Origin: a virus
Lineage: Duplodnaviria; Heunggongvirae; Uroviricota; Caudoviricetes
Length of the DNA stretch: 38,383 bases
Direction: 5' to 3' (one strand)
IMG/VR virus record: IMGVR_UViG_2711768032_000008
Location: 1-38,383 of that record
Below are positions 698 to 37,836 of the stretch, in pieces (position 1 is the stretch's first letter; every line of letters begins with the position of its first letter). Both the position numbers and the translations under genes were made by a program. The notes beneath the pieces were generated by a model, which was given only the letters and a program-made list of their open reading frames with translations, had not been told where the DNA came from and ran no database searches.

Positions 698-1060
698 GGG
701 GCTGATTCTGGATTCGACGGGATTTGCGAAACCCAAGGTGCATGCCGAGGGGCGGTTGGCCTCGTAAAAAGCCGCAAAAAATAGTCGCAAACGACGAAAA
801 CTACGCTTTAGCAGCTTAATAACCTGCTTAGAGCCCTCTCTCCCTAGCCTCCGCTCTTAGGACGGGGATCAAGAGAGGTCAAACCCAAAAGAGATCGCGT
901 GGAAGCCCTGCCTGGGGTTGAAGCGTTAAAACTTAATCAGGCTAGTTTGTTAGTGGCGTGTCCGTCCGCAGCTGGCAAGCGAATGTAAAGACTGACTAAG
1001 CATGTAGTACCGAGGATGTAGGAATTTCGGACGCGGGTTCAACTCCCGCCAGCTCCACCA
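698..1060 (+). ncRNA. ssrA: tmRNA (SsrA), 363 nt
   Basis: Begins GGGGCTGATTCTGGATTCGACGGG and ends with tRNA-like GGTTCAACTCCCGCCAGCTCCACCA; internal tag reading frame GCA AAC GAC GAA AAC TAC GCT TTA GCA GCT TAA (ANDENYALAA) at 787-819. Confidence 0.95.
1016..1060 (+). repeat. attL core: 45-bp ssrA 3' end, one of two identical direct repeats
   Basis: ATGTAGGAATTTCGGACGCGGGTTCAACTCCCGCCAGCTCCACCA is present identically at 1016-1060 and 32402-32446. Confidence 0.85.
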
Positions 1061-6856: not shown

Positions 6857-8029
6857 TTACGCGCTGACCTGGCTGGAGAAATCCAGCAGGTACTGATCGG
6901 TGATGCGCTGGCGCAGCATCAGGTTTTCAAGCGGCGGCACCGGCGTGTAGTCGTAGTCGATAGTGAGTTTCCCTGCTTTCAGGGAGTCTTTATCGTTCAC
7001 CGACTCATCCAGCCAGCAGTCTGCACCGATGATGTAGCCCTGCGTTTTCAGGCTGCGCAGCTTGGCGCGGATACCTTCGATAATGTCGCGGGCCAGTGAC
7101 GGATTCAGTGGTTTATCCACGGCCCACATATGCCCCTCTGCAATCGTGTCAGCCATCACCTGCGCCGTGCGGGTGTAGTTTTCAAACGCAAACAAGGGAT
7201 CGTCACTGAGGCAGCGGGAACCCCAGAAGCGGAACCCGTCTTTGCAGATCAGCGTGGTGACGTCATTCTGGTTCAACAGTCCCGCGTCCGTTGCCGGGTC
7301 CTGCAGGTCCCAGAACACATCAGCGGAAATGCCGGTGACGCCATTCACTCCCACGTTGGACAGGGTTTTGTGCCATCCGGTCTGTTCGTCGATTTTGGCG
7401 CGCAGACCGAGCGCACGGGCCGAGGCGTAAGCCGTGGCATCGGCTTTCAGAACGGTGTCAAAGTTGATGAAATCAGGCCAGATCAACATCCCCTCTCGCT
7501 GGCTGAAATTGTCCCGGTAAGCAATGGCTTCCTCCACCGTCTTGCAGCCATAGGCAGACAGGTAGGCAAACCCGCGCAGGCTCTGCGCAACACTCATCAG
7601 CTCAGTGGCTACCGCCTGCGTGTCATGCCCCGGCACACCGAGAATACGCGGCTTAACTTTCAGTTGCGACTGCGCAGAAAGCAGCGCTTTCATCCCCGTT
7701 TTTTTACCGTCAGATGTCACGCCACCGATAATATTGGAGGTGGTTTCCGCTTCGGTTTCGCCCTGCGCCACGCGCACAACAACCGTCACGGGTTTTGACT
7801 GGTCGGCAATAGCATCCAGCGAACGAGCCAGCGTGCCGGACTCGCCTGCTTTACCGCTGGCGGTCAGCACGTCGGTAAGCAGGACCGGCTTATTGAGGGG
7901 GAACACGGACGCATCAGCATCATCGCCGGTGCAGACCATGCCCACGATGGCGGTACTCACCGTGGTAATGGATCGGGTGCCCTCGTTGACTTCAACAACG
8001 CGCACACCGTGGTGGTAATCCTGAGCCAT
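6857..8029 (-). CDS. FI: Tail sheath protein FI
   Basis: Start chosen at [21 protein letters not shown] (tracked ORF extends upstream to 8134); resembles P2 FI from memory. Confidence 0.85.
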
Positions 8030-8100
8030 AAGGCAATTCTCCGGTTTACAGGGATGCCTTATGTTCTGGTCGATAAGAGAATGATGCACGTGTTTCAGAA

Positions 8101-8118
8101 TGTACTGACTCTGGCACA
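8101..8118. promoter_or_regulatory. TGT-N12-ACA dyad upstream of FI (Ogr-type late promoter element, candidate P_F)
   Basis: TGTACTGACTCTGGCACA centred about 80 bp upstream of the FI start codon. Confidence 0.45.
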
Positions 8119-8488
8119 ATTTCTCTGTTTTCAACCAGATGGATTAGCCGGAAATTTCTTATACAGTGTGGAAATGCCTACATCAAAAAGTAGTGCCACG
8201 TGCTGACGCTTTCCCCCAGAAACAATTAATATCCCTCCCTGAGCCCTCTGTTTAGGTGTTAGCTTTGGCCTTAGTGTAGGGCTTCAAGTGATGTTGTTCG
8301 GCAACCAATTCAATGCTACTAGCATTGAGCTATGTGAGAAGGGACTACTTTTTCGATTTAATAAAATGTTAGTTTTAAATGTCGAGAGGCAAGGTAATAT
8401 TGGCAAAACAATATTTTTAACACAGCGTGTAAAAAATATTTTTATCTGGTAGAATCAGAATATTCTTAACCATACTTGGAAGCATTTT

Positions 8489-9574: not shown

Positions 9575-10012
9575 CTAAAATTTTGGAGTGGTCGGCCAAT
9601 GAATGTTAGGTGCGCTAGAGGTATCTACCGCTTCAAGCGCATCTAAATAATCAATCCAATCGTTATACTGATTTTTCTCATCATTTGTCAAACGCGCCAT
9701 TGCTGCTTTACCAGGCCACTGCTTACTGTTCATAAAATAATTCGCTTGCTCAATCAGTTTATCTCTCTGGGCTTCAGCATACTCGATATGTTCTTCATGA
9801 GTAGGAGGAGGAGCGTCAACCCAACAGGGTAGATTATCCTTACTAACGCCTCTAATTTTCCCCTTTGGTGGAACGGATGTATACTCTTCAAATATCTTTT
9901 CGCTCACACTAATACCATCTTCTGGCCATTCACCAGAGATAATGTAGTTCTCTTTATATGCGATGTTGTAGAAAATATTTTCTGATGGGCTAAAAAAATA
10001 AATATCAATCAT
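9575..10012 (-). CDS. Tail fibre assembly protein (gpG/Tfa-like)
   Basis: 145 aa with Tfa-like motifs GEWPEDG, PPKGKIRG, WVDAPPPTHEE and C-terminal APNIHWPTTP; directly downstream of the tail fibre gene. Confidence 0.8.
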   Translation of the reverse strand: MIDIYFFSPSENIFYNIAYKENYIISGEWPEDGISVSEKIFEEYTSVPPKGKIRGVSKDNLPCWVDAPPPTHEEHIEYAEAQRDKLIEQANYFMNSKQWPGKAAMARLTNDEKNQYNDWIDYLDALEAVDTSSAPNIHWPTTPKF

Positions 10013-19999: not shown

Positions 20000-20075
20000 G
20001 AGCCGTGCTCCGTTAAAAATACTTACTGGAGCCTTATGGTTGCGGTGATGGGGGGCGTGAAACAACGCGCGGCGC

Positions 20076-20093
20076 TTGTAGGGTCAGTCACAC
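20076..20093. promoter_or_regulatory. TGT-N12-ACA dyad in divergent O/P promoter region (Ogr-type element)
   Basis: TGTAGGGTCAGTCACACA; centre about 85 bp upstream of the O start codon (minus strand) and about 56 bp upstream of the P start codon. Confidence 0.45.
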
Positions 20094-20140
20094 AATCCGC
20101 CGCCGGGGAAAGCCGCCAGTCAAGGCCGTAGGCTTGTGTC

Positions 20141-21907
20141 ATGAACACCACACTGACCCCCGCAGACCTCGATCCCCGTAGGCAGGCCATGCTGCTGTAC
20201 TTTCAGGGATACCGTGTAGCCCGCATTGCTGAAATGCTGGGCGAGAAAGTTGCAACCGTTCACAGCTGGAAGAAGCGCGACGAGTGGGGCAAGTATGGCC
20301 CGCTGGATCAGATGCAGCTCACCACCGCCGCGCGTTACTGCCAGCTCATCATGAAGGAGCAGAAAGAAGGGAAAGACTTCAAAGAGATTGACCTGCTGGC
20401 GCGCCAGTCAGAGCGCCATGCCCGGATTGGCAAATTTAACGACGGCGGCAACGAGGCCGACCTTAACCCCAACGTGGCGAACCGCAACAAAGGCCCGCGT
20501 AAGCAGCCGGAAAAGAACCTGTTTACCGACGAGCAGATCGAGAAACTGCAGGAGGTTTTCCACCATTCGATGTTTGCCTACCAGCGCCACTGGTGGGAAG
20601 CAGGCAACCGCCACCGCATCCGCAACCTTCTCAAGTCACGCCAGATTGGCGCGACCTTCTTTTTTGCCCGTGAGGCGCTGATTGACGCCATCACCACCGG
20701 GCGCAACCAGATTTTCCTCTCCGCCAGTAAGGCCCAGGCGCACGTCTTTAAGCAGTACATCATCGACTTTGCCAAAGAGGTGGATGTGGAGCTGAAAGGC
20801 GACCCGATGACGCTCAGCAACGGCGCGTGTCTGTACTTCCTCGGCACCAACGCCCGCACGGCGCAGAGCTACCACGGCAATCTGTACCTGGATGAATATT
20901 TCTGGATACCGAAATTTCAGGAGCTTCGCAAGGTGGCCTCCGGGATGGCGATTCACAAGAAATGGCGCCAGACCTATTTTTCCACGCCGTCCAGCCTGAC
21001 CCACAGCGCCTACCCGTTCTGGTCCGGCGCACTGTTCAACCGGGGCCGCGCCAAAGCGGACAAGGTGGATATTGACCTGACCCACGGCAGCCTGGCCCCC
21101 GGCCTGCTCTGCCCGGACGGACAGTATCGCCAGATCGTCACCGTGGAAGATGCGGTGCGCGGCGGCTGTAACCTGTTCGACATCGACCAGCTGCGCATGG
21201 AGTACAGCCCGGACGAATACCAGAACCTGCTGATGTGCGAATTTATCGACGATCTGGCGTCCGTGTTTCCGCTTAGCGAGCTGCAGGCATGCATGGTGGA
21301 TAGCTGGGAGGTCTGGACTGATTTTCACGCACTGGCGCTGCGACCGTTTGGCTGGCGCGAAGTGTGGATCGGCTATGACCCGGCGAAAGGCACACAGAAC
21401 GGCGACAGCGCAGGCTGCGTGGTGATGGCCCCGCCTGCCGTGCCGGGCGGCAAGTTCCGCATTCTTGAACGTCACCAGTGGCGCGGGATGGACTTCCGCG
21501 CCCAGGCTGACGCCATCAAAAAACTGACCCAGCAGTACAACGTAACCTATATCGGCATCGACTCGACCGGCGTCGGTCACGGTGTTTACGAGAACGTGAA
21601 AGCGTTCTTTCCTGCCGTCCGGGAGTTTGTCTACAACCCCAACGTCAAAAACGCCCTGGTGCTCAAGGCATACGACATTATCAGCCACCGCCGTCTGGAG
21701 TTTGACGCCGGACACACCGACATCGCGCAGTCCTTTATGGCAATCCGCCGGGCTACCACAGCCAGCGGTAACCGCCCAACCTACGAAGCCAGCCGCAGCG
21801 AAGAAGCCAGCCACGCCGATTTGGCCTGGGCAACGATGCACGCACTGTTTAACGAACCGCTGCAGGGCGAATCCGCCAATACCAGCAATATTGTGGAGAT
21901 TTTTTGA
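20141..21907 (+). CDS. P: Terminase large (ATPase) subunit P
   Basis: 588 aa; divergent from O, overlaps Q start; P2 gpP-like. Confidence 0.9.
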   Translation: MNTTLTPADLDPRRQAMLLYFQGYRVARIAEMLGEKVATVHSWKKRDEWGKYGPLDQMQLTTAARYCQLIMKEQKEGKDFKEIDLLARQSERHARIGKFNDGGNEADLNPNVANRNKGPRKQPEKNLFTDEQIEKLQEVFHHSMFAYQRHWWEAGNRHRIRNLLKSRQIGATFFFAREALIDAITTGRNQIFLSASKAQAHVFKQYIIDFAKEVDVELKGDPMTLSNGACLYFLGTNARTAQSYHGNLYLDEYFWIPKFQELRKVASGMAIHKKWRQTYFSTPSSLTHSAYPFWSGALFNRGRAKADKVDIDLTHGSLAPGLLCPDGQYRQIVTVEDAVRGGCNLFDIDQLRMEYSPDEYQNLLMCEFIDDLASVFPLSELQACMVDSWEVWTDFHALALRPFGWREVWIGYDPAKGTQNGDSAGCVVMAPPAVPGGKFRILERHQWRGMDFRAQADAIKKLTQQYNVTYIGIDSTGVGHGVYENVKAFFPAVREFVYNPNVKNALVLKAYDIISHRRLEFDAGHTDIAQSFMAIRRATTASGNRPTYEASRSEEASHADLAWATMHALFNEPLQGESANTSNIVEIF

Positions 21908-22920
21908 TGGGTAAGAGTAAGAAAAACCGCACTGCAGTTAAGCACCGCAGCGGCGCATCCGCAGAAGCATTCAGCTTTGGTGATCCGATCCCGGTTCTGG
22001 ACCGCCGTGAGCTGCTTGATTACGTGGAGTGCGTGCAGATGGACCGCTGGTATGAACCGCCAGTAAGTTTTGACGGGCTGGCGCGCACCTACCGTGCGGC
22101 CGTGCATCACAGCTCACCCATTGCCGTTAAACGCAACATTCTGACCAGCACCTTTATTCCGCACCCTCTGCTGAGTCAGCAGGCATTCAGCCGGTTTGTG
22201 CAGGACTATCTGGTATTCGGTAACGCCTATCTGGAGAAGCGCACCAACCGCCTCGGCGGTATTCTGTCGCTGGAGCCATCGCTGGCGAAATATACCCGCC
22301 GTGGTCTGGATCTCGATACCTACTGGTTTGTGCAATACGGTATGACCACACAGCCCTACGAGTTCACCAAAGGCAGTATCTTTCACCTGATGGAGCCGGA
22401 TTTAAACCAGGAGATTTACGGCCTGCCGGAATACTTGTCCGCCATCCCTTCCGCCCTGCTGAATGAGTCTGCCACGCTGTTCCGCCGCAAGTATTACATC
22501 AACGGCAGCCATGCGGGATTCATCATGTATATGACTGACGCCGCACAGAACCAGGAGGACGTGAACAACATCCGGCAGGCAATGAAAAGCGCCAAAGGGC
22601 CGGGCAACTTCCGCAATCTGTTTATGTACTCGCCGAACGGCAAAAAGGACGGGATTCAGATTATCCCGCTGTCAGAAGTCGCGGCAAAGGATGAGTTTCT
22701 GAACATCAAAAACGTGAGTCGGGACGATATGATGGCAGCACATCGCGTTCCGCCACAGATGATGGGGATTATGCCAAGTAACGTTGGTGGGTTTGGGGAT
22801 GTGGAGAAAGCCAGCAAGGTTTTCGTTAGAAATGAACTTATCCCGCTCCAAAAAAGAATATCGGAAGTTAATGAATGGTTAGGTGAAAATGCTATAACTT
22901 TTGTGGAATATCTATTATAG
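21904..22920 (+). CDS. Q: Portal protein Q
   Basis: 338 aa with recalled similarity to P2 gpQ (e.g. PVLDRRELLDYVEC, HHSSPI, YGLPEYLSA, NELIPLQ). Confidence 0.9.
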   Translation: MMGKSKKNRTAVKHRSGASAEAFSFGDPIPVLDRRELLDYVECVQMDRWYEPPVSFDGLARTYRAAVHHSSPIAVKRNILTSTFIPHPLLSQQAFSRFVQDYLVFGNAYLEKRTNRLGGILSLEPSLAKYTRRGLDLDTYWFVQYGMTTQPYEFTKGSIFHLMEPDLNQEIYGLPEYLSAIPSALLNESATLFRRKYYINGSHAGFIMYMTDAAQNQEDVNNIRQAMKSAKGPGNFRNLFMYSPNGKKDGIQIIPLSEVAAKDEFLNIKNVSRDDMMAAHRVPPQMMGIMPSNVGGFGDVEKASKVFVRNELIPLQKRISEVNEWLGENAITFVEYLL

Positions 22921-22930
22921 AAAAATCTTT

Positions 22931-22960
22931 GAGGTGTTCTTCGAACACCTCTCTTTAAAT
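22931..22960 (+). terminator. Hairpin terminator candidate after Q
   Basis: Perfect 9-bp stem GAGGTGTTC / GAACACCTC with 3-nt loop, followed by a weak T-rich stretch. Confidence 0.45.
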
Positions 22961-23252
22961 CAGCCAATCTAATTAAGCTCTTTAACAAAATTGCGTACAC
23001 GCCTTCTATTCATCTCACTTTCATAAGAAATCACTGTGAGCGCCCACTTAACCTTATCATCTATTATACGATATTTCTCATCACCTCCACATATCTCACC
23101 AAATAGAAGACCTCCTTTTATAGCCTTATACAAATCTTCACCGCGGACCGTTTTAATAATACGATAATAATCTTCAACATAGACACTACATAGGTAATCA
23201 ACATCTTCATGACTCCAACTATGGTCGTTATAAACTCGCAGTAGAACTTCAC

Positions 23253-24656
23253 TTAAGGATCCCTGTTGATTTGTTTTTTTACGTGAAAAGCATTATTAAA
23301 TTTATCGACAAGCTCGCCATCTTCTAATGCGCTGAACAATGACCTGTTTTGCACATTGAATAATTCAATCTCATCGCCCCGCCCCTCAATATAGACATCT
23401 ATAATATGCGATGCCTTACTACCTTCTCCAAAGTCTCGAAAAAAACAAACTAGGTTATCTAAGTTGTTAGGTGTTATAGTTTTAAAGTTATCTAAAAAAC
23501 TTTGATATAATGAATTTATAACTTCAGACTGATTGTTATCAAATGAGTCGCGATATAACCCCCAAGCAATAGTGAAGTTATCTCTAGACTTTCCATCTAG
23601 AACTAACTCATTCATCTTTTTGATTTCATCATCTAGCATTAACTTATTATAATACCCATCCTTAACAGCACTAATAAGGATCCTATCCAAGTCAGATGTG
23701 TTGTGATATTTGTATTTATTGATAATTTCCTTCCAAGCTAGTTTCTTTGAGTCATTGTCTTTTTCATTGTTAAATGAACCATAGAACATAAATTCATCTT
23801 TTTCTATAAACTGTATCGGAGGTACTAATTCATCATCATTAAAACAATAATAGCTCCATGAAAAAAGTACAATAGAATGCATAATGGAGTACAAAATACC
23901 ATCATCCATATTCTTAGTATGAAGATACGCCTCATCGATTAAACGTTCTATTTTTTTTAGCACACGGATATTAGTTATTCCGACACTTGAGGTTAAAGAT
24001 CTCAAATCATCATGAAATCTTTTTTTTCCGTCATACGCGATTTGCGCACACTCATAAGGTGTTGGTTTAAACGTAAATTCAATATCAATTACTTTTTCTT
24101 TATAAGTTTCATAGTCCTTAGTTTCACTAGTCCCATCATTTAATAGCAATACCACTTTGCATTTTTTTTGTTCTTTAAGATGTGAAACCAATCCTAATAC
24201 ATCCTTCAACGGCAATCCATCGCCTTTCCTCTCTAAATCATCTATGCATACTATAATATTTTTTAGAGACATAAATGACAATGCTTCTAAGGCTGGTGCA
24301 AAATCTTTCACATAAGGCATGTTTTTCACAAAGTTCATTGCCTTTCTACCAAAACCCTCTGACAGAGCCAATGCATTTTGTTTAAAAGTTTCAATATTTG
24401 GCTCGATACCAATTGAAGATGTTGGAATCGCATTTTCAAATATAGAATACTTTAAGGCATCAAGAGAGTTCACTCCGAATAATGACACGTATGAATATCG
24501 TTCAAATTCTATATTAACTTCCTGCTTCGCTGTTTGTAAAAAATTATTCCAGCCATAGGTCTTTCCTACACCCCACTTACCTTTTATCGCTACTACCGCT
24601 GATTCTTCATTATTAAGAAAATTAAATATTTGCTCGCGAACTATAGCTATTGACAT
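23253..24656 (-). CDS. KAP-family P-loop NTPase (candidate anti-phage cargo)
   Basis: 467 aa; Walker A GKWGVGKT with the Trp typical of KAP NTPases, Walker B-like IVCIDDLERK; strongly AT-rich compared with flanking phage genes; between cos and Q. Confidence 0.75.
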   Translation of the reverse strand: MSIAIVREQIFNFLNNEESAVVAIKGKWGVGKTYGWNNFLQTAKQEVNIEFERYSYVSLFGVNSLDALKYSIFENAIPTSSIGIEPNIETFKQNALALSEGFGRKAMNFVKNMPYVKDFAPALEALSFMSLKNIIVCIDDLERKGDGLPLKDVLGLVSHLKEQKKCKVVLLLNDGTSETKDYETYKEKVIDIEFTFKPTPYECAQIAYDGKKRFHDDLRSLTSSVGITNIRVLKKIERLIDEAYLHTKNMDDGILYSIMHSIVLFSWSYYCFNDDELVPPIQFIEKDEFMFYGSFNNEKDNDSKKLAWKEIINKYKYHNTSDLDRILISAVKDGYYNKLMLDDEIKKMNELVLDGKSRDNFTIAWGLYRDSFDNNQSEVINSLYQSFLDNFKTITPNNLDNLVCFFRDFGEGSKASHIIDVYIEGRGDEIELFNVQNRSLFSALEDGELVDKFNNAFHVKKQINRDP

Positions 24657-24736
24657 GATCTCATCCTTTTATCTAAGCAAGCAACATAAAGAGCCTGATA
24701 TTATCTCATTTTTTAGAAATGATCCCCTCTGCGCGC

Positions 24737-24756
24737 GCTCGTATCCCCGCCACGCC
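24737..24756. other. Candidate cos (cohesive end) site
   Basis: GCTCGTATCCCCGCCACGCC; reverse complement GGCGTGGCGGGGATACGAGC resembles the recalled 186/P2 cohesive ends (GGCGTGGCGGGGAAAGCAT / GGCGAGGCGGGGAAAGCAC). Confidence 0.5.
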
Positions 24757-24938
24757 TGCCCGCTTTATGGAGTGGTTTTCATGCAGGTGCATGATGGGCC
24801 GGAAATCGCGCCAGTTCTGGCGACTCCGACCCGTTGCGATCCTTTTTGGATCATGCGAATCCATGCACCATAGACATGCACCGCTTATTCAAACCGCAGG
24901 ATGCCATATGGGAGGGAGTTTCCCATGGTGCGAAATCA

Positions 24939-25124
24939 CTAATGCGTACTCTCATCCTGCCCTACTCCATATTCATCCAGCCGGGTAACCAGATCGCTCG
25001 TCAGTTCTGACAACCACGAAATCGCCACCTCTTTATCGTCATCGCTACAGTCTGAACTGGCAACCAGCCGGGCCATAAGTTCTATCCGCTGCAGTGCAAG
25101 TGACTCCATGAACAAATCGTTCAC
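24939..25124 (-). CDS. Hypothetical small acidic protein
   Basis: 61-aa ORF between A and cos; no family recognised. Confidence 0.35.
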   Translation of the reverse strand: MNDLFMESLALQRIELMARLVASSDCSDDDKEVAISWLSELTSDLVTRLDEYGVGQDESTH

Positions 25125-25239
25125 AACTCCCTCCCAATATTACTGTTTATATATACAGTACATCATATGCATTTAAAGCTGAAATAATTTTTTACTCAGC
25201 TAACCCTTTGATTAATAGATAGCCTCATTTCAGACCGTC

Positions 25240-27660
25240 TTAGTACCACTGCCGCCATTTGTCATCCTCCTGCAGACGCTGATCCCGGTAGAAAAGGCGT
25301 AGCCCGGCTCCGGATGGGATGCTACCGCCTCGTAAAAGCAGATCCACTTCCGCATCACTTGCATCAAATCCTCTGGAACTCAGTTCTGCCTCGAGCTGCA
25401 GTCGTTGCTGTTCTGAAATGCTCTGTTTGTATGCTTTTTTCCGCTTCGGTTTTACCAGTCTCAACCTAGCGGTGAGTTCCCACCGTTCCTTCTGGCTCAT
25501 GTTGTGCAAGTAATCCTGCAACTCCTTCTCATCCATGGATTTAATATCGGGTAAATCCCCTTCTGCCTGGTTCAAATTTTCAACAGGGGGACAGTTATTG
25601 CCACGAGTCCAAGGGGCGCAAGCGCCCTGGTCGGCTGTCGCCTCCTGAACGTCAACGGCCTTGCGAACCATTTTCCACTTCACCGCGTGCGTGCAAATCT
25701 TGCCCTCTGCAATCGGGGACCAGATGCCATAAATACGGATACCGTGATCGCCGTAGGCGCTCGGCTCGTCGTTAAGCTCGTAGGCCGTTCTGACAAGGTG
25801 ATGTTTGCGGGGAACCAGCACGCCACCCTGTTTCATAATGTAGGTGGCAAAGCAGCCCGCATCAGCAGCAGCCAGTACCGCATCCAGACGCGGGTTATCC
25901 AGTACCGGCGCGCCCGCTTTGCGCTCGCCCTGCACTCTGGCGGCCTGACCAGCCAGCAAACGCAGCTCGCGGTATGCCTGGCGCCCCGGAATACCAAAGA
26001 AGCGAAACTGTTGGACGCGATGCAGTGACGCCCATGCACTAACATGCTCGGCGCTGTCGCGCAGCGATCTGCCGGTTTCTTTGCTGATTTCTTTAGCCAG
26101 TCCGCGCCCGTCAATATTCTTGCTGATGTATTTGGCGATATAGCTGGTCGGCGTGCCCTTACGCGGGTTGATAAGCTCGGATTTGAAGCGCGGCCCCGTG
26201 TTGTTGCCCAGCTCCTCGCGGTCTTCACGAATGGCAAATTTACGCAGCAGCGCGGTAATGGATCGACGGTCTTTTTTGCGCATGAAGCACAGCAGGTGCC
26301 AGTGCACGGTACCGTCATGGTGCGGTTCTGCAACGCGGACGCCATACCAGCGCAGCCCGGCTTTGTGCATTGCCTTGCGGAAAGCGGCGAACGTATCAAC
26401 CAGGTAATCACTGCTCTGGCGGACTGTGGCGCTGGTCCACTTCGGATTTGGTCTGCCGTTGTTAAGGGTTGCGTGGAAGCGTGACGGGCAGGTGATGGTA
26501 TAGAACACAGCGCAGTCTCCGCGCATTTCCGCGATCAGCTCCAGCCCTTTCACACAGGCCATCATTTCATTACGACGGTGCGCCGGGTTGCTGCTGCTGG
26601 CGTTCACCACGTCTTCCATATCCAGCGTGTCGCCGTCTGCATTAACCAGCTCGTGCGACTGGAAAAACTCCAGCGATTTGCGGCGCTGCTCGCGTTTGTG
26701 GATCACGGTTTCATAGCTGACATACGGCGATGCTTTCTTGTTAACCAGGCATACTGCACGCAGTTGTTCCTCCCGCCATTCACAGCGCATCTGCCACAGC
26801 TTGCGATACCACCAGTCTGCGCACAGCATACGTGCAAGCGAAGGTGGGATAAGCTCATAAGGCACGGGTTTACGGCGGCGTTTCTTGCGGCGCAGTTTCT
26901 CAAATGCAGGTGGTATAACTTCAAGTCGCATAGTTTCTGCAGCGACTTTTTCCCATGTCTGCCTGATTTCTTCCAGTTCTACATCATCACTTGCAGACAG
27001 ATCGCCCCAACCCGCATCAAGACACATGCTCATGTGTGCCGCAACCAGCGTGGAAAGACGTTTGACCTGATCCTGATTCATTTCGGGCAGAACCAGCAGC
27101 CCCTCCAGTCCATCATGGCTCGCCATGAACCGGAATGAAGCAGACACCTGACTATCACGCACGCACTCCAGCCGTTCAATACACGGTCTGATAGTTTCGC
27201 GCAGGTAGCGGGAATACGCTTTCGGGCGTCCCAGGCTATGGAAGTATTTAATCCGCTCCAGCAAAGGCTTGCTGATATGGGTGGGCATGGCGCTTACATC
27301 AGCCAGGATAACCAAATCGGGGTTAACGCGTTGCTGCTCGCGGGCCATTTTGGCATGGCTAATCAGCCGATCCTGTTCCATTTCACGCTGGACAGGATCT
27401 CTGGATTCATTGAAGAAATAACGTTCCCAGACCTCATCACTCAACGCCTCACGGCGCAGTTGCTCCTGCTCGTTATCAGTAGCGTAAAGAGTGATCAGGT
27501 TTGAAAGCGCAGACTCCGGCGCAACTTCCGCCGGGTCCAGATACGGATTAACCGCTTTTTTTGGGGTATTCCATGGAAAGGCCACGGCGGCCTCGATCGG
27601 GCCGCTTTTGTCTCTTGCTAATTTTAGCGTCACTGGGAGACTCCAAGGCTCACAAAGCAC
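25240..27660 (-). CDS. A: Replication initiation endonuclease A (gpA-like, rolling-circle Rep)
   Basis: 806 aa; HxH-type motif ([10 protein letters not shown]) and downstream YIAKYISK segment; early-region position. Confidence 0.9.
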
Positions 27661-27877
27661 CTCGGGTGTAGTGCTTACCTTTCAGCTCTGCAATTTCCTG
27701 ACAGGTAACGCAGCACTGCACACCCGGGATGGCTCGGCGGCGAGCTGGCGGGATTGGTGCATCGCAATCAACGCAGAGAACACGGGAAACGCCCGGCACT
27801 TTGGCGCGGGCGTTGTGGATGTGGCGCTGGAGATCTTCTTCCACGCGCTGCTGCACGAGGTCCATTGAATCAGCCAT
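27650..27877 (-). CDS. TraR/DksA-family C4 zinc-finger protein
   Basis: 75 aa with [26 protein letters not shown] four-cysteine motif. Confidence 0.75.
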
Positions 27878-28113
27878 CAGTGCCAGTCCCCCCGAGATTC
27901 CGCTTCACAGCGCGCAGCTTCGCGGCGCAGTAGCTCTGCTGCCTCCACCCCGTTCATTTCCTTCTGCAGAATATGAATCGCCAACGCTTCCATTCGGATT
28001 GAAACGGCTAAAGCACGATCCTTGCGCTCATCCATACGCGCCTCAGTAAGCAACAGATTGAGGCCTGCATCATCTGGTCCTGTTTTGGTGACACGGGTTT
28101 CAATATTTCGCAT
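27877..28113 (-). CDS. Hypothetical early-region protein
   Basis: 78-aa ORF packed between neighbouring minus-strand early genes. Confidence 0.45.
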   Translation of the reverse strand: MRNIETRVTKTGPDDAGLNLLLTEARMDERKDRALAVSIRMEALAIHILQKEMNGVEAAELLRREAARCEAESRGDWH

Positions 28114-30231: not shown

Positions 30232-31251
30232 ATGACCATCAGAAAGCAGCCAAACGGAAAATGGTTGTGTGAATGCTACCCGAACGGGCGCGACGGCAAG
30301 CGTGTGCGCAAACAATTTTCGACAAAAGGCGAGGCCATAGCATTCGAAAACTTCACCATGGATGAAGTGAACAAAAAACCATGGCTAGGGGAAAAGGAAG
30401 ATCGGCGGAATCTGTCAGAAGTGATAGAGCAATGGCACTCACTCTACGGACAAACGCTTGCAGACCCCAAACGCCTGATGGCGAAACTCAACATTATTTG
30501 TAATGGTCTTGGCGATCCCATCGCCTCAGAGTTAACCGCCGGTGATTTTACGAAATACCGCGAAGCGCGGTTAAAAGGTGAAGTGCGAAATGAAGAGGGC
30601 GCACTTATGTCGCCGGTTAAGCCCCGCACGGTAAACCTTGAACAACGCAACCTATCATCGGTTTTTGGCACACTGAAAAAGCTGGGCCACTGGTCAGCGC
30701 CCAATCCGCTCGCCGGATTGCCAACATTTAAAATCGCTGAGGGCGAACTGGCATTCCTGGCCCCGGAAGAAATTAAACGCCTGCTGGATGCCTGCGCTGA
30801 TTCTCAAAGCCCCAGCCTGCTGATGATTGCAAAAATATGCCTGGCCACCGGCGCACGCTGGAGTGAAGCCGAAAACCTGCAGGGCCATCAGTTATCGAAA
30901 TACCGGATCACCTACACAAAGACCAAAGGCAAGAAAAACCGAACCGTGCCAATATCTCAGAAACTGCACGATGAACTCCCCAAAAACAGAGGGAAGCTAT
31001 TCACCCCATGCAGAAAAGCCTTTGAGCGTGCAGTGAAGCGAGCTGGTATCGACCTGCCAGAAGGTCAATGTACTCATGTGCTTCGGCATACATTCGCCAG
31101 TCACTTTATGATGAACGGCGGAAACATACTGGTACTGCGCGATATTCTTGGTCACTCTGATATTAAAATGACAATGGTCTATGCACACTTCGCTCCAGAC
31201 CATTTAGAAGATGCAGTGACGAAAAACCCACTTGCTATGTTGGAAGTTTAA
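30232..31251 (+). CDS. int: Tyrosine integrase (P2/186-type)
   Basis: 339 aa; C-terminal catalytic region with HVLRHTFASH and LGHSDIKMTMVYAH (Tyr). Confidence 0.9.
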   Translation: MTIRKQPNGKWLCECYPNGRDGKRVRKQFSTKGEAIAFENFTMDEVNKKPWLGEKEDRRNLSEVIEQWHSLYGQTLADPKRLMAKLNIICNGLGDPIASELTAGDFTKYREARLKGEVRNEEGALMSPVKPRTVNLEQRNLSSVFGTLKKLGHWSAPNPLAGLPTFKIAEGELAFLAPEEIKRLLDACADSQSPSLLMIAKICLATGARWSEAENLQGHQLSKYRITYTKTKGKKNRTVPISQKLHDELPKNRGKLFTPCRKAFERAVKRAGIDLPEGQCTHVLRHTFASHFMMNGGNILVLRDILGHSDIKMTMVYAHFAPDHLEDAVTKNPLAMLEV

Positions 31252-31252
31252 T

Positions 31253-31783
31253 ATGGACAAAAGCTTAGTAGCTCTTTTTTACTTTTCGTTTTTATTTTTA
31301 AGTTTTTTTGTTTTTATTAAGTATCGACTTTACGAACTCGATCATAGAAGCTTATTCCAGCAACCTCTTTTTTGGGCTGCAATTGCACTCCCCTTACTCA
31401 CTTGTTTTTTCTTAGGCTCATTAGTTTGGATAGATAAAATCCACTCCTTCAGTCTTACAAGTCATGGTTACGAAAGATTTCTTGAAATATCTAAATTGCC
31501 ATTACTGGTTCTAGCTTCATCTGTTCCCCTAGTTTCAATAGTTAATAACCTTCACAGAACGAAACAAACAGAAAAACAAATTTCAGAGGCCGAACAAAAA
31601 AACAGAGTAGATCTATATTATAACCATATGAAATTCAACTTAGATTTGTATAAAAAAATTGAAACAAAAAAAAATTATCAGCTACTACCCTGTAGTGGAT
31701 GCCCACAAAGAAGCTATATATCAGCATTATATCAAACATCCACAAGAGCTTTACAGGAAAGCATACCCTCAATCTACCCCTGA
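31253..31783 (+). CDS. Membrane-anchored hypothetical protein, N-terminal part (frameshifted cargo gene)
   Basis: AT-rich; two or three N-terminal transmembrane helices; frame ends 110 bp after an A9 tract (31666-31674). Confidence 0.5.
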   Translation: MDKSLVALFYFSFLFLSFFVFIKYRLYELDHRSLFQQPLFWAAIALPLLTCFFLGSLVWIDKIHSFSLTSHGYERFLEISKLPLLVLASSVPLVSIVNNLHRTKQTEKQISEAEQKNRVDLYYNHMKFNLDLYKKIETKKNYQLLPCSGCPQRSYISALYQTSTRALQESIPSIYP

Positions 31784-32285
31784 TAATTCACAACAATTGA
31801 AAATCAATGATAACTTTGTTATAGAACTACATAAGTGCTGGATTGAAATTAATGCCAGACTTAAACAATTATCAGAAAGCGAAACTCAACTAGATCCAAC
31901 TCAAGAATTTTGTACTTCAAAGATGAGAATTTTCTTTGGAATAATGAGTATTTATGTAAAGACTTGCAAGCATCTTTGCTTGGGTGGATTTCATGACCAA
32001 AAGTCATTCATTTTGAATGATAATTATGATAAGTATCAAATTTATTCACCGTTCTATGACTTTGGTACAATGTACCAATCTCTGCAATCTCTAGAAGAGA
32101 TCACATTCGCTTTCTTAGATACCTGCAGAAATGAAGAGGTTAATTTATATTTCCCATTGGACGACAAAATTCTGATTTATGGTGAAGGGATTCTACAAAA
32201 TTGGTATGGATACTCTCGATTCTTGATTTCTACCGCCTATCAGCCCGCAAAGATGGTGCGTTTACAACCGCTGATGCGTGAATGA
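31659..32285 (+). CDS. Hypothetical protein, C-terminal part of the same frameshifted cargo gene
   Basis: 208-aa ORF in the +1 frame beginning inside the A9 tract (TTG start in the ORF track); removing one A fuses it to the upstream ORF. Confidence 0.45.
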   Translation: MKQKKIISYYPVVDAHKEAIYQHYIKHPQELYRKAYPQSTPDNSQQLKINDNFVIELHKCWIEINARLKQLSESETQLDPTQEFCTSKMRIFFGIMSIYVKTCKHLCLGGFHDQKSFILNDNYDKYQIYSPFYDFGTMYQSLQSLEEITFAFLDTCRNEEVNLYFPLDDKILIYGEGILQNWYGYSRFLISTAYQPAKMVRLQPLMRE

Positions 32286-32446: not shown

Positions 32447-32611
32447 CTTTTTAGTTGTTTGAAGTTCAATGAAGTCTACTAAGCCCACACAGCACAAGCT
32501 CTGCGGGCTTTTTTACGTCTATTGTCGTCCAGTGAGAATTGCTGAGAACTACGAGTTATGGCACCCTGAATGGGACCCACTAAGAAGGGTCCAAAAACCG
32601 AGGGTCCCAAA

Positions 32612-33841
32612 ATGGCAAAAATCGCTAAGAAGCTCACTGACACTGAAATCAAAAGCACCAAGCCAGCCGATAAAGAAATCAACTTGTTTGACGGTGATGG
32701 TCTGATTCTACGAATCGCTCCTTTGGCGAAAGGAGGCAAGAAAAATTGGTATTTCAGGTATGCAGTACCAGTGAGCAAGAAAAGAACCAAAATGAGCCTT
32801 GGGACATATCCTCACCTTACCCTTGCAAGAGCCAGAGCCTTACGTGATGAATATCTCTCCTTTCTGGCAAATGGTGTTGATCCCCAAATCCATAACAACG
32901 ATAAGGCGAAGGCATTAAAGAGTGCTACTGAGCACACTCTCCAAGCCGTAGCGCGGAAATGGTTAGATGAGAAGGTAAAGACATCAGGTATCTCACAAGA
33001 CCATGCAGCAGACATCTGGCGCAGCTTAGAGAGAAATGTCTTTCCCGGTCTGGGTAATGTCCCTATCAATGAGATCCGACCTAAGCTCTTAAAACAACAC
33101 CTTGATCCTATTGAGCAACGAGGCGTATTGGAAACTCTACGCCGTATCATTTCACGTCTGAATGAAATCTTCCGGTGGGCAGCTACTGAAGAACTTATTG
33201 AGTTCAACCCGGCTGACAACCTTGGTCAAAGATTCAGTAAACCAAAAAAGCAAAATATGCCTGCCCTTCCCCCAAGCGAATTGCCAAGGTTTATGGAATC
33301 TTTGACGAATGCGTCAATCCGGTTGGAAACACGTATGCTAATTGAATGGCAATTGTTGACATGGGTTCGTCCGGGTGAAGCCGTTCGCGCAAGGTGGTCT
33401 GATATTGATACAACCAACAGCATTTGGAACATTCCTGCTGATTTCATGAAAATGAAAAAGCTTCACAAAGTTCCTTTGAGTAAAGAAGCTTTGCGCATCC
33501 TTGAATTAATGAAATCAATAAGTGGGCATAGAGAATGGGTTTTCCCCAGCATAAAAGCGCCTCTTAATCATATGCATGAACAAACAGCCAACGCAGCTAT
33601 CATCCGAATGGGGTTCGGAGGCGAGCTTGTAGCTCACGGTATGCGTTCTATTGCACGAACAGCGGCAGAGGAGTCTGGTAAATTCAGAGCTGAAGTTCTT
33701 GAGGCAGCGCTTGCCCACTCGAAAAAAGATGAAATTATCGCAGCATACAATCGTGCAGAATATCTGATAGAGCGACAGAGTTTGATGCAATGGTGGAGTG
33801 ATTACGTTCAAGCTCAAAGATCAAATGCTCTGGTAGCCTAA
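32612..33841 (+). CDS. Tyrosine integrase, P4/CP4-57 (IntA)-like
   Basis: Start chosen at MAKIAKKLTDTEIKSTKP (tracked ORF from 32570); N-terminal LTDTEIK...DGDGL motif and C-terminal HGMRSIARTAA...AYNRAEY catalytic region. Confidence 0.85.
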   Translation: MAKIAKKLTDTEIKSTKPADKEINLFDGDGLILRIAPLAKGGKKNWYFRYAVPVSKKRTKMSLGTYPHLTLARARALRDEYLSFLANGVDPQIHNNDKAKALKSATEHTLQAVARKWLDEKVKTSGISQDHAADIWRSLERNVFPGLGNVPINEIRPKLLKQHLDPIEQRGVLETLRRIISRLNEIFRWAATEELIEFNPADNLGQRFSKPKKQNMPALPPSELPRFMESLTNASIRLETRMLIEWQLLTWVRPGEAVRARWSDIDTTNSIWNIPADFMKMKKLHKVPLSKEALRILELMKSISGHREWVFPSIKAPLNHMHEQTANAAIIRMGFGGELVAHGMRSIARTAAEESGKFRAEVLEAALAHSKKDEIIAAYNRAEYLIERQSLMQWWSDYVQAQRSNALVA

Positions 33842-33879
33842 GTATCAGAATAGCTAATATAATCCTGAAGGTAAAGAAA

Positions 33880-34296
33880 ATGGAAACCCTATTCAAAGTT
33901 TTTGAAAAATTTAGTTCCAGACCACTTTTTTTTATTTTTTTCGGACTCTCACTTTGTGAATTTTTTCAGAAACAATCTGTTCTGATGAATCCATCAGCAG
34001 ATAACATCGCGAAATTATTCGCAGCCATGATATTAGTTGTTTTTTTTACTTGGGGATTTGAATGGCTAATCTTCAAGTTCAATGTAAACCTTGAACCTCA
34101 TGATCAAGGCGATATTGGACCAACAATTGGAACGGCTACTTTAGCTGTATACTTAGTTTATGCCTTTCACTTTCTCAGTGAAAATCCTGAAGCATTAAAT
34201 TTAAAGTTATTAACTAACTCTGGCTTTATATACAGCACAACTCTATTATTATTCTCATTAGAATGCATGAAGCTTAGAAGACTTAAACAAAAATAA
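33880..34296 (+). CDS. Small hypothetical membrane protein (about 4 TM segments)
   Basis: 138 aa, AT-rich, hydrophobic stretches (LFFIFFGLSL, FAAMILVVFFTWGFEWLIF, TATLAVYLVYAFHFL, FIYSTTLLLFSL). Confidence 0.5.
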   Translation: METLFKVFEKFSSRPLFFIFFGLSLCEFFQKQSVLMNPSADNIAKLFAAMILVVFFTWGFEWLIFKFNVNLEPHDQGDIGPTIGTATLAVYLVYAFHFLSENPEALNLKLLTNSGFIYSTTLLLFSLECMKLRRLKQK

Positions 34297-34367
34297 ACAA
34301 CATCATTGTGATGATAAATATAAAATAGGCATGGCGAAAAAAAATCACCACGCCTAAAATATAATAA

Positions 34368-36134
34368 TTATGGTAGCATCATTGATACATAATCCACACC
34401 AATCCTTGAGCTATACTGAGACGCTATAGCCTGATATCTTTCTGCATAACCAGTTCTCAGTTGAGATTTAAGTTTGAGTCGGACAGGAACATTTTGCACG
34501 TTGCCATCCATATTACTTAAAAACACGGCAGAAATAATATTTTTTTCTTCGCCATCAACTGTTGTTCCATGATTCAACACCACCATATAATCAACAACAG
34601 GAAGCGTTTTATCCCCTTCGAAAATAGAGAGATATTTTCTTTGATTTTTATGCATTACATATATATATTTCGAATGTTCAGCAAATGGCAATGCTTTACT
34701 CTGACTGGCGTTAAAAAGCTCCAGAACTTTAATGAGCCTGTGCGGACTTAATCTTACATGGTGAGGGTCGTTACCCTGAGTAGGAACCAAATCACATGCC
34801 GCAGATACACATAAATACCATTTGTTCGACTCTGTATCAAAGAAAATAGTGCCAGTAGAAATATGACCATCTTCAAAATTCTTTGAAGACAAATTCATAT
34901 TTAAAGCATGATACATTTCGTGATAAGTATCATTATTTGATGGCAGATCCATTTTTGAAGAGCAATATTGGAGCAATGCAGCAACTCCGCTGTTAGCGTA
35001 TTCATTTGAATAGCTATCAAAAACACTTTTGATAAATTCATCCAGCGTATTATTATTTTTAAGTCTTTGATAAAGCTCTTCTGATAAATTACCAAATACA
35101 AAGTCAATATTTCTACATCTAATATCAGGCGAGTCTGATTTTAATATCTCATTTAACCACGCAGCTTGACCGTAATGATCGTTAGCCAAATGATTTACAA
35201 AAGATAAAGCCTCAGCTTCGATTGCATTCTGAATTTCAGATTTTATTAACTGATAATAAGATGGTTTCCATTCAATGAGAGAATCATTGAGAGTTTGCCA
35301 AATCCTATCTCCATCGTTTTCATGATCATCTTGAACCTTATGAAATAGGGAGACAAAGATATTACCACATTGAATCCATTTTACTCCGCTTTCATCACCC
35401 CGAATGACATTGCCAGATGTGTTGCTAGAAATAATTGCATTTCTAGACACAGCATATTCTGCAATCATTTTTGCAATGAAGTTTTTATCCTTTTGATCCT
35501 CCAACACAGCATCATCATGTATTAATCTTTTAATTCTTCTACAAGGCTTACTGTCTTTAATATAGGCTATTGTTTCATCTCTTGTGAGAGCTTTATTACC
35601 ATTATCATTTAAGTTCGGTAATACAACGTCTTCCCAATAACTTTGGACATCTTCATTATCGTAGTCAATGATCAAGCTGTTGATATCCAGAGCACCTTTG
35701 AGAGTCGATGATATCTGCATCCAAACCGTTTCTAAATTCTCTCTAGTATATATTACAATCATATTTAAATGATCGGAGTCTTTCAAATCTTGTAATAGTT
35801 TAAGTGTTTTATCAGGTGCATTATTATCAAGATGATAATCTACAATAATAAGATCTGATTTCCTAATCCGATCCACATCGAAATTAACAGAACCATTGTC
35901 AACATCACAAATCATATTTTTAGATTGAAAAAAGCTCTCAAGAGTAGCGGCTCGTTTAGATGAGTCAATTTTGTTGTAGTCTAAATCAACTTCGTTATTC
36001 AACGCCCTGATTGATTCAGAATACGTCAGAAAATCGTCATCAATCATGACAACGGAACGAATTGCATTTTCGCAGAAAGTTTTCTGGACAAGAGAATTAT
36101 AATTTGCCACTGTCATATTAGAACTCCACTCCAT
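34368..36134 (-). CDS. Receiver (REC)-like domain protein with large uncharacterised C-terminal domain
   Basis: 588 aa; N-terminal VVMIDDD ... DLIIVDYHL ... NMIVIYT resembles a response-regulator receiver fold; the remaining ~450 aa match nothing I recognise; AT-rich; 17-bp overlap with the upstream kinase-like gene. Confidence 0.6.
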   Translation of the reverse strand: MEWSSNMTVANYNSLVQKTFCENAIRSVVMIDDDFLTYSESIRALNNEVDLDYNKIDSSKRAATLESFFQSKNMICDVDNGSVNFDVDRIRKSDLIIVDYHLDNNAPDKTLKLLQDLKDSDHLNMIVIYTRENLETVWMQISSTLKGALDINSLIIDYDNEDVQSYWEDVVLPNLNDNGNKALTRDETIAYIKDSKPCRRIKRLIHDDAVLEDQKDKNFIAKMIAEYAVSRNAIISSNTSGNVIRGDESGVKWIQCGNIFVSLFHKVQDDHENDGDRIWQTLNDSLIEWKPSYYQLIKSEIQNAIEAEALSFVNHLANDHYGQAAWLNEILKSDSPDIRCRNIDFVFGNLSEELYQRLKNNNTLDEFIKSVFDSYSNEYANSGVAALLQYCSSKMDLPSNNDTYHEMYHALNMNLSSKNFEDGHISTGTIFFDTESNKWYLCVSAACDLVPTQGNDPHHVRLSPHRLIKVLELFNASQSKALPFAEHSKYIYVMHKNQRKYLSIFEGDKTLPVVDYMVVLNHGTTVDGEEKNIISAVFLSNMDGNVQNVPVRLKLKSQLRTGYAERYQAIASQYSSRIGVDYVSMMLP

Positions 36135-37836
36135 TGAACTGGATCACAAAATTAGCGCCATCTTTTATTAAATAGTTATCGCCTTCATCAGGTTCTGAAT
36201 ACCATATTTTATGATGTGCAACAGCAAGGTTTTCTCGACATAGATACAGACCTACCCCATGTCCATTTGCTCTTTTGCTATAAAATAGTTCAAATAGTCG
36301 CGGGATATCATCGGTATCAATTGCCGGACCAGAATTTGCTATGATAACCAAAGAATTCACAAAACCAATCTTTATGAGCCTATTATTTGACAGACTGACC
36401 CAATACATTGCATTGTTGATAATATTAGTAAAAACAGGATAGATCCTTGATGGTATATCTGTTATTGCGATTTGCTTAAACTCTTCACTAAATTCAATAG
36501 TTATTCGTTGCCGTTCGAAACGCTCCCCAAAGAACTTCAGGACATAATCCATGATATTTTTTCCAGTTATTCTCTGCCTGGATTGATAACCTGATATTTT
36601 CAAAGGTGATAAGAAACGTATTTGTTGAGTAAGCGATCTGTGAGCATTTAACGCCAATGAAAAACCAGGGTGTTCTTTTACAGAAGTAGGAAGAGAGTTT
36701 AGTCCTCTGGTTACCATAGAATCCATTTCTTCAAGTTCATGAGATGTTATCTCAACACTAATACCTAACTGTGCAAGCGCGTTTAAACTTTTAGCTTTTT
36801 CTTCAAAATATGAGCGTTCTTCTTCAGATAATGAGAATGCTGAATCTAAGTTTATACCTTCAAATAATCTATCGAGACCTTTTATTATTGATTGATATTT
36901 GAAAGTTAGGGTATCAACTGACTCAACATATAAACTATCGAGCAAATTAAACACATTTTCAATTTGTGAATCATTATCTATTGAATCAACAACTGATATA
37001 GTTTTAGCATAATAATCACTTCGATCAACCTTTATTTCATCGGCCCATTTTTTTAAAAGAGAATGTATCTTCTCCTCTATCGTGTTATTAAACTTAGTTA
37101 GTTTAGAATTAATAATACCTTGATTTTTTTCAAGGTGATTTTTCGCTGCCAATGAAGGCTCAAGTTTATTTAATTCAGAATCAAGTTTATTAATTGCTAA
37201 CTTCATTTGTAGAATATACGCAGAGAACTCATTAAATTTATCTCTGTAGTCTCTATATTTCTCTTCATACATTCCAAGTTTTGGAGGTTTGATAGGCGTT
37301 TTAATTTCACTGCGCAACGCATCTAAGTTTGTAAGATCACTGTCTATAATTTTAAGATAGTTTAAATCTAACGAACCATCAGTTTTATCAAGCTTAGTTT
37401 TCAGCCTTTTAACAGCCTCCAAGGAAGCATCAAGAACTGGTGTCTGATTCTTCAAAGCTTCTGAAAAACTTTTTTGTGTTGATTTTCGAGCTTGTTGTTG
37501 AGCAGATTTTCTTAACTCTTTTTCACGCTTAACTTGTTCTAAAAGCTCTTTACGGTCATCAGAACGTGAACCAAAAAATCTATCAGCAAGTTCAGTTAAC
37601 AAATTAGATATAATAGTTTTCAGTTCTCTTGCAGCCTGGTATCTTATGAATCCCTCTCTCCCCGACTTATCTTTCAGCTCTTTATTACTGGATTGAGTAA
37701 TTCCAATATAACCAAAAATCCTTCTATTAGACCAATAATATCGCCCTGCATTCCATGAACGTCTTTCTTCTATCTGGAAGAAATCATTATCTACTCGACC
37801 ATAAGGTAATACTCTCAAGCTATCCCTAAAAATCAT
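36118..37836 (-). CDS. Histidine-kinase-like protein (H-box + HATPase_c), 5'-truncated by IS3
   Basis: C-terminal TSHELEEM (H-box-like), N-box NIINNAMYW, G1 IANSGPAID, G2 GHGVGL; long coiled-coil-rich N-terminal region; frame stays open upstream of the first Met to the IS3 junction (in-frame stop only at 37963-37965, inside the IS). Confidence 0.6.
   Translation of the reverse strand: MIFRDSLRVLPYGRVDNDFFQIEERRSWNAGRYYWSNRRIFGYIGITQSSNKELKDKSGREGFIRYQAARELKTIISNLLTELADRFFGSRSDDRKELLEQVKREKELRKSAQQQARKSTQKSFSEALKNQTPVLDASLEAVKRLKTKLDKTDGSLDLNYLKIIDSDLTNLDALRSEIKTPIKPPKLGMYEEKYRDYRDKFNEFSAYILQMKLAINKLDSELNKLEPSLAAKNHLEKNQGIINSKLTKFNNTIEEKIHSLLKKWADEIKVDRSDYYAKTISVVDSIDNDSQIENVFNLLDSLYVESVDTLTFKYQSIIKGLDRLFEGINLDSAFSLSEEERSYFEEKAKSLNALAQLGISVEITSHELEEMDSMVTRGLNSLPTSVKEHPGFSLALNAHRSLTQQIRFLSPLKISGYQSRQRITGKNIMDYVLKFFGERFERQRITIEFSEEFKQIAITDIPSRIYPVFTNIINNAMYWVSLSNNRLIKIGFVNSLVIIANSGPAIDTDDIPRLFELFYSKRANGHGVGLYLCRENLAVAHHKIWYSEPDEGDNYLIKDGANFVIQFNGVEF

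Follow-up and report, generated by a model that had tools for sequence, protein, structure and literature searches.

A frameshifted KAP-family P-loop NTPase gene in the cos-proximal cargo slot of a 186/P2-like prophage of Escherichia coli

The DNA analysed here (the whole stretch of 38,383 nucleotides, in the following referred to as the window) is IMG/VR record IMGVR_UViG_2711768032_000008, assigned to the Caudoviricetes, and appears to represent a 186/P2-like prophage integrated beside ssrA in E. coli. Between its replication gene A (25240..27660, minus strand; Phage_GPA in the closely related contig L014), which is followed by a small conserved open reading frame (ORF; 24939..25124, minus strand), and its portal gene Q (21904..22920, plus strand; Phage_portal in the matching loci) lies an ORF of 467 codons (23253..24656, minus strand), which encodes the KAP NTPase domain and most of the helical domain of a P-loop NTPase. 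These two flanking genes form the conserved boundaries of the interval and, together with the terminase gene P (20141..21907, plus strand), belong to the 186/P2-like backbone. Across 23001-24500 the GC content is 0.31-0.36, compared with 0.55-0.64 in the neighbouring genes P, Q, and A; overall, the ORF has ∼32% GC and its flanks ∼57%. A preliminary description, made from the sequence of the window, had interpreted the ORF as low-GC cargo, namely a lone KAP-family NTPase gene between A and Q on the Q side of a cos-like site, and had considered it a plausible uncharacterised gene for defence or abortive infection. Nature, composition, and position of the gene were borne out, whereas its extent and the functional state of this particular copy have to be judged differently.

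With 2168 homologs at E ≤ 1e-5 (best E 1e-270), the ORF is far beyond a chance reading frame, and public databases list the exact 467-aa protein under the name “P-loop NTPase fold protein [Escherichia coli]”. It matched the KAP_NTPase profile PF07693 with 37.5 bits (residues 10-199; cutoff, 20 bits), and its closest intact homolog (P0002, 562 aa) did so with 41 bits. The Walker A motif GKWGVGKT (residues 26-33; codons 24558..24581, minus strand) and the Walker B motif DDLER, the hallmark of KAP proteins (residues 139-143; codons 24228..24242, minus strand; part of CIDDLER at 137-143), both of which had been pointed out before, conform to the signatures GxxGxGK[ST] and DD-x-[DE]-R, respectively. 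In an alignment of 59 family members, K25, G26, W28, G29, G31, K32, and T33 are invariant around the former, C137, I138, D139, D140, E142, and R143 around the latter, as are N173 and R231. As the residues of both motifs, as well as N173 and R231, do not vary, nucleotide binding and hydrolysis appear to be clearly under selection in the family.

The preliminary description had taken 23253..24656 as the whole gene. Among the best 120 of the 2168 homologs, however, full-length members are almost all 554-564 aa long, and tblastn with P0002 as the query resulted in two high-scoring segment pairs on different frames, one from 24656 to 23262 (frame −3, 86% identity), the other from 23289 to 22972 (frame −2, 69% identity). 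Alignment with the DNA of the intact gene (on contig L003, which encodes P0002) contains a 1-nt gap at CACG-TAAAAAAAC, that is, in a run of seven adenines (A7; 23274..23280, minus strand; in phase GT[A AAA AAA]C) where eight would be needed to maintain the frame. When one base is restored, the reading frame continues through to ...RRVRNFVKELN*, and the footprint of the gene, now 562 codons, extends over 22969..24656 (minus strand). The two-frame alignment thus indicates that the 467-aa ORF is not the entire gene, that a 1-nt deletion truncates the protein, and that the final 95 codons are still present, though in another frame (22969..23289, minus strand; …KVKWALTVISYESEMNRRRVRNFVKELN). The 333 bp seemingly constituting a spacer before Q are, therefore, the 3′ end of the KAP gene itself. 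This conserved C-terminal part contains nine family-invariant positions (L472, D485, L489, F501, F519, A539, L540, N550, and R553).

Should the missing adenine be an error of homopolymer sequencing or assembly, the real gene would be intact, and at another site the window does contain a private homopolymer indel (one additional A at ∼31673, compared with the 99.98%-identical contig L014). The A7 state, on the other hand, is shared gap-free with L014, L015, and L016, which are independent assemblies, and all members of the protein cluster have it, which amounts to well over 100 contigs. Thirteen contigs, both from NCBI and from several independent Logan assemblies, encode the identical 467-aa product, with DNA aligning gap-free to the window. 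The cluster formed at 90% identity comprises 13 distinct sequences, which all come from E. coli and do not exceed 467 aa; three variants of this length are found on 7, 119, and 2 contigs (∼128 in total). As independent assemblies have the A7 state in common, a sequencing artefact at this position was rejected, its probability being minute, and the frameshift is real.

Beyond the frameshift, copies of the allele carry additional damage. An extra T in a T-run shortens the product to 412 aa on one contig, and fragments of 250 and 218 aa, which begin at internal Met codons and retain the same frameshifted tail, are found on 17 and 5 contigs, respectively. In strain EC96, IS1 interrupts the KAP gene after nt 391; this copy of the allele (L027 5001-5396) is also flanked by IS66. 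The commonest variant contains L327R at a column in which the 59 aligned homologs have only L, I, or V, and the window contains F501I, located in the out-of-frame part, at a column where 59/59 sequences have F. The C-terminal part, which is more variable than the rest also in pairs of intact genes, still has a dN/dS of 0.29 compared with the intact gene of L003, which indicates that the frameshift happened recently relative to the divergence of the alleles. The copy in the window is probably inactive; most likely, it lost its function not long ago and is now a decaying remnant, not a defence gene in working order. Because it is frameshifted, has lost its conserved last 95 residues, and decays further in the population, it is a poor candidate for active defence, which is how the preliminary description had presented it. 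Other broken KAP copies occur at this slot as well: E. coli JL05 (L001 4474-6125) contains a gene of a different type (that of WP_001726290, see below) split into two ORFs of 321 and 219 aa. In a preprint from 2026, KAP_NTPase is found among the P2/P4 pseudogene annotations of the pseudogene table, and pseudogenes of recognisable defence genes were found to be rare in P2/P4 hotspots in a survey of the same year.

Alternatively, the allele might still be functional, either because 467 aa suffice without the last 95 residues, or because slippage at A7, by few of the ribosomes or RNA polymerases, gives rise to the full 562-aa protein; in the latter case, the frameshift would throttle the expression of a costly defence gene or switch it by phase variation. 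Consistent with such a scenario, slipping by −1 on GT[A AAA AAA]C leads precisely into the frame of the family (HVKK-TNQQGSLSEV…), the downstream frame of 106 codons is still open, the 467-aa form has been kept on ∼128 contigs, and the dN/dS of the C-terminal part versus L003 is as low as stated above. Yet, no downstream stimulatory structure was found at A7 (z +1.07; 177/200 shuffled sequences folded at least as well), no Shine-Dalgarno-like element is visible upstream of it, and no A8 version exists in the 90% cluster, while independent secondary disruptions do exist, and F501I and L327R affect conserved columns. Furthermore, intact relatives lack an A-run at this site (P0002 has GCC AAA AAG TCA), so A7 is not a conserved recoding site. 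We therefore consider it rather unlikely that the allele has remained functional, which applies to both versions jointly.

The position of the KAP gene relative to cos was established from the core of this site (GGCGTGGCGGGGATACGAGCGCGCGC; 24756..24731, minus strand), which could be aligned to cosL of phage 186: it agrees with 26/32 of the positions 1-32 of the 186 genome, and with 24/32 at the left end of P2. Its first 19 nt (24756..24738) are the counterpart of the 186 cohesive end. Exactly one copy of the identical 26-mer per locus was found in 12 related prophage loci, and in the window the KAP gene starts 75 nt past it. In all 186-like prophages examined (L001, L002, and L022-L026), the 26 nt (24731-24756) are identical and similarity ends at the last base. 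As the similarity between prophages with different cargo stops directly past the cos core, the comparison suggests that cos and the 3′ end of Q are the recombination boundaries at which cargo is exchanged. Four Logan contigs carrying the KAP gene (L007, L013, L015, and L016) end within 1-2 bases of window 24760-24762, at the cos core. Most likely, their assembly was broken by the repeated cos/backbone sequence; physical genome ends are a less likely cause.

The cos-proximal interval between gpA and gpQ is a hotspot for anti-phage systems (Rousset et al, 2022; PMC9122126), in agreement with the preliminary description, and also contains non-defence cargo, for example, partition systems and toxins (Rousset et al, 2022; PMC9122126). 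The slot of the window lies between the same genes, is adjacent to cos, and varies between similar prophages, as the cargo differs among E. coli prophages with backbones being ∼84-88% identical; the KAP gene is the sole cargo gene of the hotspot in this prophage. On the Q side, other E. coli prophages carry a DUF4145 gene, an S1-peptidase pair, a PD-(D/E)XK three-gene set, or a small hypothetical gene. As the Q side is, thus, regularly used as a cargo slot, this placement is normal for the 186-like clade and nothing special to the KAP gene. In P2, the gpA-gpQ interval holds old and tin (Rousset et al, 2022; PMC9122126), which, like the KAP gene, are accessory genes in the cos-proximal A-Q interval, there with a role in exclusion, but which encode unrelated proteins and are located on the A side of cos. 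They have to be, because only 187 bp separate cosL from the portal gene in P2 (196 bp in 186).

Putative signals for expression surround the KAP gene. A candidate extended −10-like element (TGaGATAAT; 24708..24700, minus strand) and a putative ribosome-binding site (AAGGA; 24668..24664, minus strand), 7 nt before the ATG, were read directly from the sequence; the former was not reported by a consensus promoter scan and is, hence, a candidate only. Between the convergent Q and KAP genes, a GC-rich hairpin (GAGGTGTTC-GAA-GAACACCTC; 22931..22951) is located 11 nt past the stop codon of Q and 18 nt past the restored stop codon of the KAP gene. A terminator-like site was reported there on the minus strand, and the hairpin is likely to be a bidirectional terminator shared by both genes. 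Bounded by the cos core on one side and by this hairpin on the other, the cargo module is self-contained.

The same slot is occupied by members of the family in other prophages. In E. coli 504237, the gene for the 550-aa protein WP_001726290 has the cos core and the portal gene as its immediate neighbours; the protein shows 41% identity along its entire length (E 1e-140). Family, position, orientation, and the PADLOC match (see below) of this gene are the same as those of the window gene, but it is a different allele, and only the window copy is frameshifted. WP_001726290 is listed as KAP_NTPase in the hotspot Table S5 of Rousset et al (2022; PMC9122126), whose accessible part contains at least 69 mentions of KAP_NTPase; within the accessible text of that article, no test or discussion of these entries was seen. 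The presence of the family at this slot is, thus, already catalogued and not new. Nearest to the lineage of the window are P0002 (86% identity) and, in the same slot of Enterobacter cloacae, P0003 (69%); further same-slot relatives are found in Mixta hanseatica (50%) and in prophages of Salmonella enterica (48%). On the contig encoding P0002, the A side of cos (L003 2489-5691) contains an unusual set of cargo, that is, genes for a PAAR-motif protein, an Rv2179c-like exonuclease, and a HipA_C/HIRAN protein.

How sporadic the gene is became apparent from complete E. coli genomes. Of 5426 such genomes, 128 carry the E. coli variant of the family, while the P/Q/A backbone was matched in 1315, from which it follows that the gene is accessory. 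The preliminary description had named conservation as a core function across P2-like phages as the outcome that would speak against a defence gene, and had suggested comparing the junction between P2-like prophages; the gene is not core, and the family recurs at the junction, where it swaps with other cargo. Beyond the Enterobacterales, 78 species-level loci were found in Gamma- and Alphaproteobacteria, Cyanobacteria, Leptospira, Nitrospinae, and CPR bacteria, with remnants of a portal gene beside only two of them. When 150 genes directly adjacent to the family in 40 species-level loci were compared with PADLOC and Pfam, no recurrent partner gene emerged; integrases, AriA/PtuA/Old-like ATPases, mad genes, and AbiJ domains were encountered only occasionally, among ordinary genes. 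Among 50,697 phage records searched by tblastn, there was no close relative, the best matches (27-29% identity) being in Burkholderia and E. coli phages. The family is widespread and horizontally mobile, and consists of single genes for proteins of ∼560 residues.

The architecture of the intact protein was modelled with AF2 for P0002 (59 homologs; mean pLDDT 81.6). According to this model, the N-terminal ∼245 aa form a soluble KAP-type P-loop ATPase with a Cdc6/ORC-like fold, and the C-terminal ∼315 aa an all-helical, solenoid-like domain. The human ORC motor module was the top match with Foldseek and PF07693 that with HHpred; STAND proteins were only mid-ranking structural neighbours, and the protein does not belong to the STAND NTPases by its NB-ARC score either (E 0.037; 13.7 bits versus a cutoff of 23.5). 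When the family profile was compared with all PDB chains, only a chance match was obtained (arginase, E 0.24), and an NCBIfam search gave nothing useful. Transmembrane helices in or beside the NTPase domain are typical of many KAP proteins, though not of all. No segment of transmembrane-like hydropathy was found in the window protein (maximum Kyte-Doolittle mean over 19 residues, 1.45), and the insert at residues ∼88-130, the site of such helices in many KAP proteins, is polar and of low confidence in the model. The protein is, thus, predicted to be a soluble variant lacking a membrane anchor.

Concerning known or suspected defence systems, the PADLOC candidate model PDC-S49 (PDLC05031) matched residues 22-389 of the window protein with 92 bits (E 9.6e-27; profile positions 27-396 of 624), and PHROG phrog_4740 matched residues 5-449 (E 1.3e-78). 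Both likewise represent single-gene P-loop proteins, of ∼620 aa; the C-terminal third of PDC-S49 has no alignment to the window protein, and in the literature searched no mention of PDC-S49 was found. Several KAP NTPases encoded by single genes have been demonstrated to protect against phages, that is, EF_KAP, whose protective effect depends on the Walker B motif, along with three metagenomic KAP proteins (PMC12632615), as well as the KAP/ORC-like Reve from a P4 hotspot, which strongly protects against Drexlerviridae (bioRxiv 10.64898/2026.02.27.708500). Like the family described here, all of them are single proteins with a KAP NTPase domain, followed by a region without a known domain, and are borne by mobile elements. 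For Reve, the reported top matches with Foldseek (human ORC motor module) and HHpred (PF07693) are the same as those of the window family, the comparison being one of annotation only. EF_KAP, which could be compared only at the shared Pfam domain, has two N-terminal transmembrane helices, whereas the window protein has none. The model of PifA, which mediates exclusion of T7 by the F plasmid, matched only a 20-residue P-loop (residues 14-33; E 0.0018), so full-length membership is not given, and QatA of qatABCD did not match the window protein at all. QatA and RdrA (of RADAR) act together with partner genes, while the window family has no conserved neighbour.

As the hotspot is known for its anti-phage content (PMC9122126), as the PDC-S49 candidate was matched, as integrases, AriA/PtuA/Old-like ATPases, mad genes, and AbiJ are among the neighbours in other species, and as KAP NTPases encoded by single genes have been found to be protective, a defence role of the intact family appears somewhat probable. 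The proposal of an uncharacterised defence gene is, thus, plausible as far as slot and context are concerned; “uncharacterised” holds less well, the family being already contained in Table S5 of Rousset et al, in PDC-S49, and in phrog_4740. One could, alternatively, regard the family as not directed against phages but as a housekeeping or maintenance ATPase of mobile elements, for example, a Cdc6/ORC- or TnsC-like DNA-binding factor, which might act on replication, on packaging near cos, or on the stability of the element, or might serve in counter-defence or addiction. The fold itself, which is Cdc6/ORC/TnsC-like, would fit this notion, as would the absence of an effector domain, the fact that the KAP gene abuts cos in every P2-like locus examined, the partition systems and toxins also present in the hotspot (Rousset et al), and the many homologs elsewhere with non-defence neighbours. 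However, the sporadic occurrence of the family among P2-like prophages (128 versus 1315 genomes) argues that the phage does not need the gene; unrelated cargo is exchanged at the same slot, and the gene is foreign DNA of low GC content. Its inactivation is tolerated, while the backbone genes examined (20000-28000) read as full-length ORFs, and both the PADLOC candidate match and the defensive phenotype of those KAP single genes that were tested point in the other direction. A non-defence role of the family is, thus, considered unlikely.

Taken together, the explanation to which we lean, by a modest degree, is that of a cargo module with a gene of a defence family, of which the present copy is decaying. 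The module, consisting of the candidate promoter, the ribosome-binding site, one gene, and the hairpin terminator, is an insertion that separates cos from the 3′ end of Q. Intact members of the family would protect the cell bearing the prophage against other phages: the helical domain might recognise a phage component, binding and hydrolysis of ATP at the invariant Walker A/B site might then drive a conformational or oligomeric switch, and this switch would block the infection, a sequence of events inferred from the genomic context and from the tested single-gene KAP systems. In the window copy, the deletion of 1 nt from the A-run, now fixed, has removed the conserved last 95 residues. Several observations weigh against this explanation. 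In the literature, no experimentally tested close homolog was found, the tests having been conducted only on other KAP proteins; PDC-S49 has only candidate status, with 59% of its profile covered by the match; the protein contains no recognisable enzymatic effector domain, which makes the protective mechanism guesswork; and many homologs from outside the enterobacteria adjoin ordinary housekeeping genes. As to the decay, the 467-aa form persists unbroken on the ∼128 contigs, which could be due to recent clonal spread or to the truncated protein still being useful, and A7 is an in-phase A_AAA_AAA heptamer, at which low-level −1 or transcriptional slippage could yield some full-length protein. 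Very unlikely, in our view, is a combination in which the family represents a stand-alone, soluble, effector-less KAP/ORC-like ATPase blocking phages in a manner not described before and, in addition, the A7 allele is throttled by −1 slippage, so that mostly truncated and, rarely, full-length protein is made. One possibility for such a block would be ATP-dependent binding or sequestration of phage DNA, or of a replication or packaging protein, rather than killing of the cell.

Other parts of the window also contain accessory DNA. One end of the element is flanked by the tmRNA gene (ssrA; 698..1060, plus strand). Toward the opposite end, a second tyrosine integrase gene (32570..33841) is followed by a gene pair encoding Response_reg_2 (PF19192) and HEF_HK/HATPase_c proteins (34368..37836, minus strand) and an IS3-type rve fragment; this integrase-led region (32570-38365) has the appearance of a second island, placed in tandem where the prophage is attached. 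Beside the integrase, the gene at 31232-32285 (plus strand), an intact ORF of 343 aa with a weak TPR-like match in L014, is split into two ORFs in the window by the private extra A, which lies in an A-run; this indel stems either from faulty sequencing or from another fresh frameshift in cargo. A low-GC (0.30-0.37) gene for a 355-aa Acyl_transf_3 protein (PF01757, 48.5 bits; 8489-9556, plus strand), which had no PADLOC match, lies between two ORFs (6857..8134 and 9575..10012, both minus strand) that we take to be late tail genes because of their position. Its product is probably an O-antigen acetylase (lysogenic conversion), and the site is a second cargo slot, possibly the Z/fun position of P2. 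Inserted among the tail and baseplate genes is a further low-GC gene, for a 268-aa DUF6216 protein (48.8 bits; 13818-14624, plus strand), again without a PADLOC match.

For the annotation of such prophages, these findings imply that the annotated 467-aa ORF should not be mistaken for the full protein. The window presents a gene of a defence slot caught in the process of decaying, which is somewhat unusual considering how rare such pseudogenes were in the 2026 survey. The useful lead is the intact family and not the copy of the window. This family is common, with one variant in ∼2% of the complete E. coli genomes and relatives across many phyla. If intact members do protect, a soluble, effector-less KAP ATPase would be added to the defences known to be borne by prophages, and the old idea that KAP NTPases are proteins of biological conflict would become directly testable.

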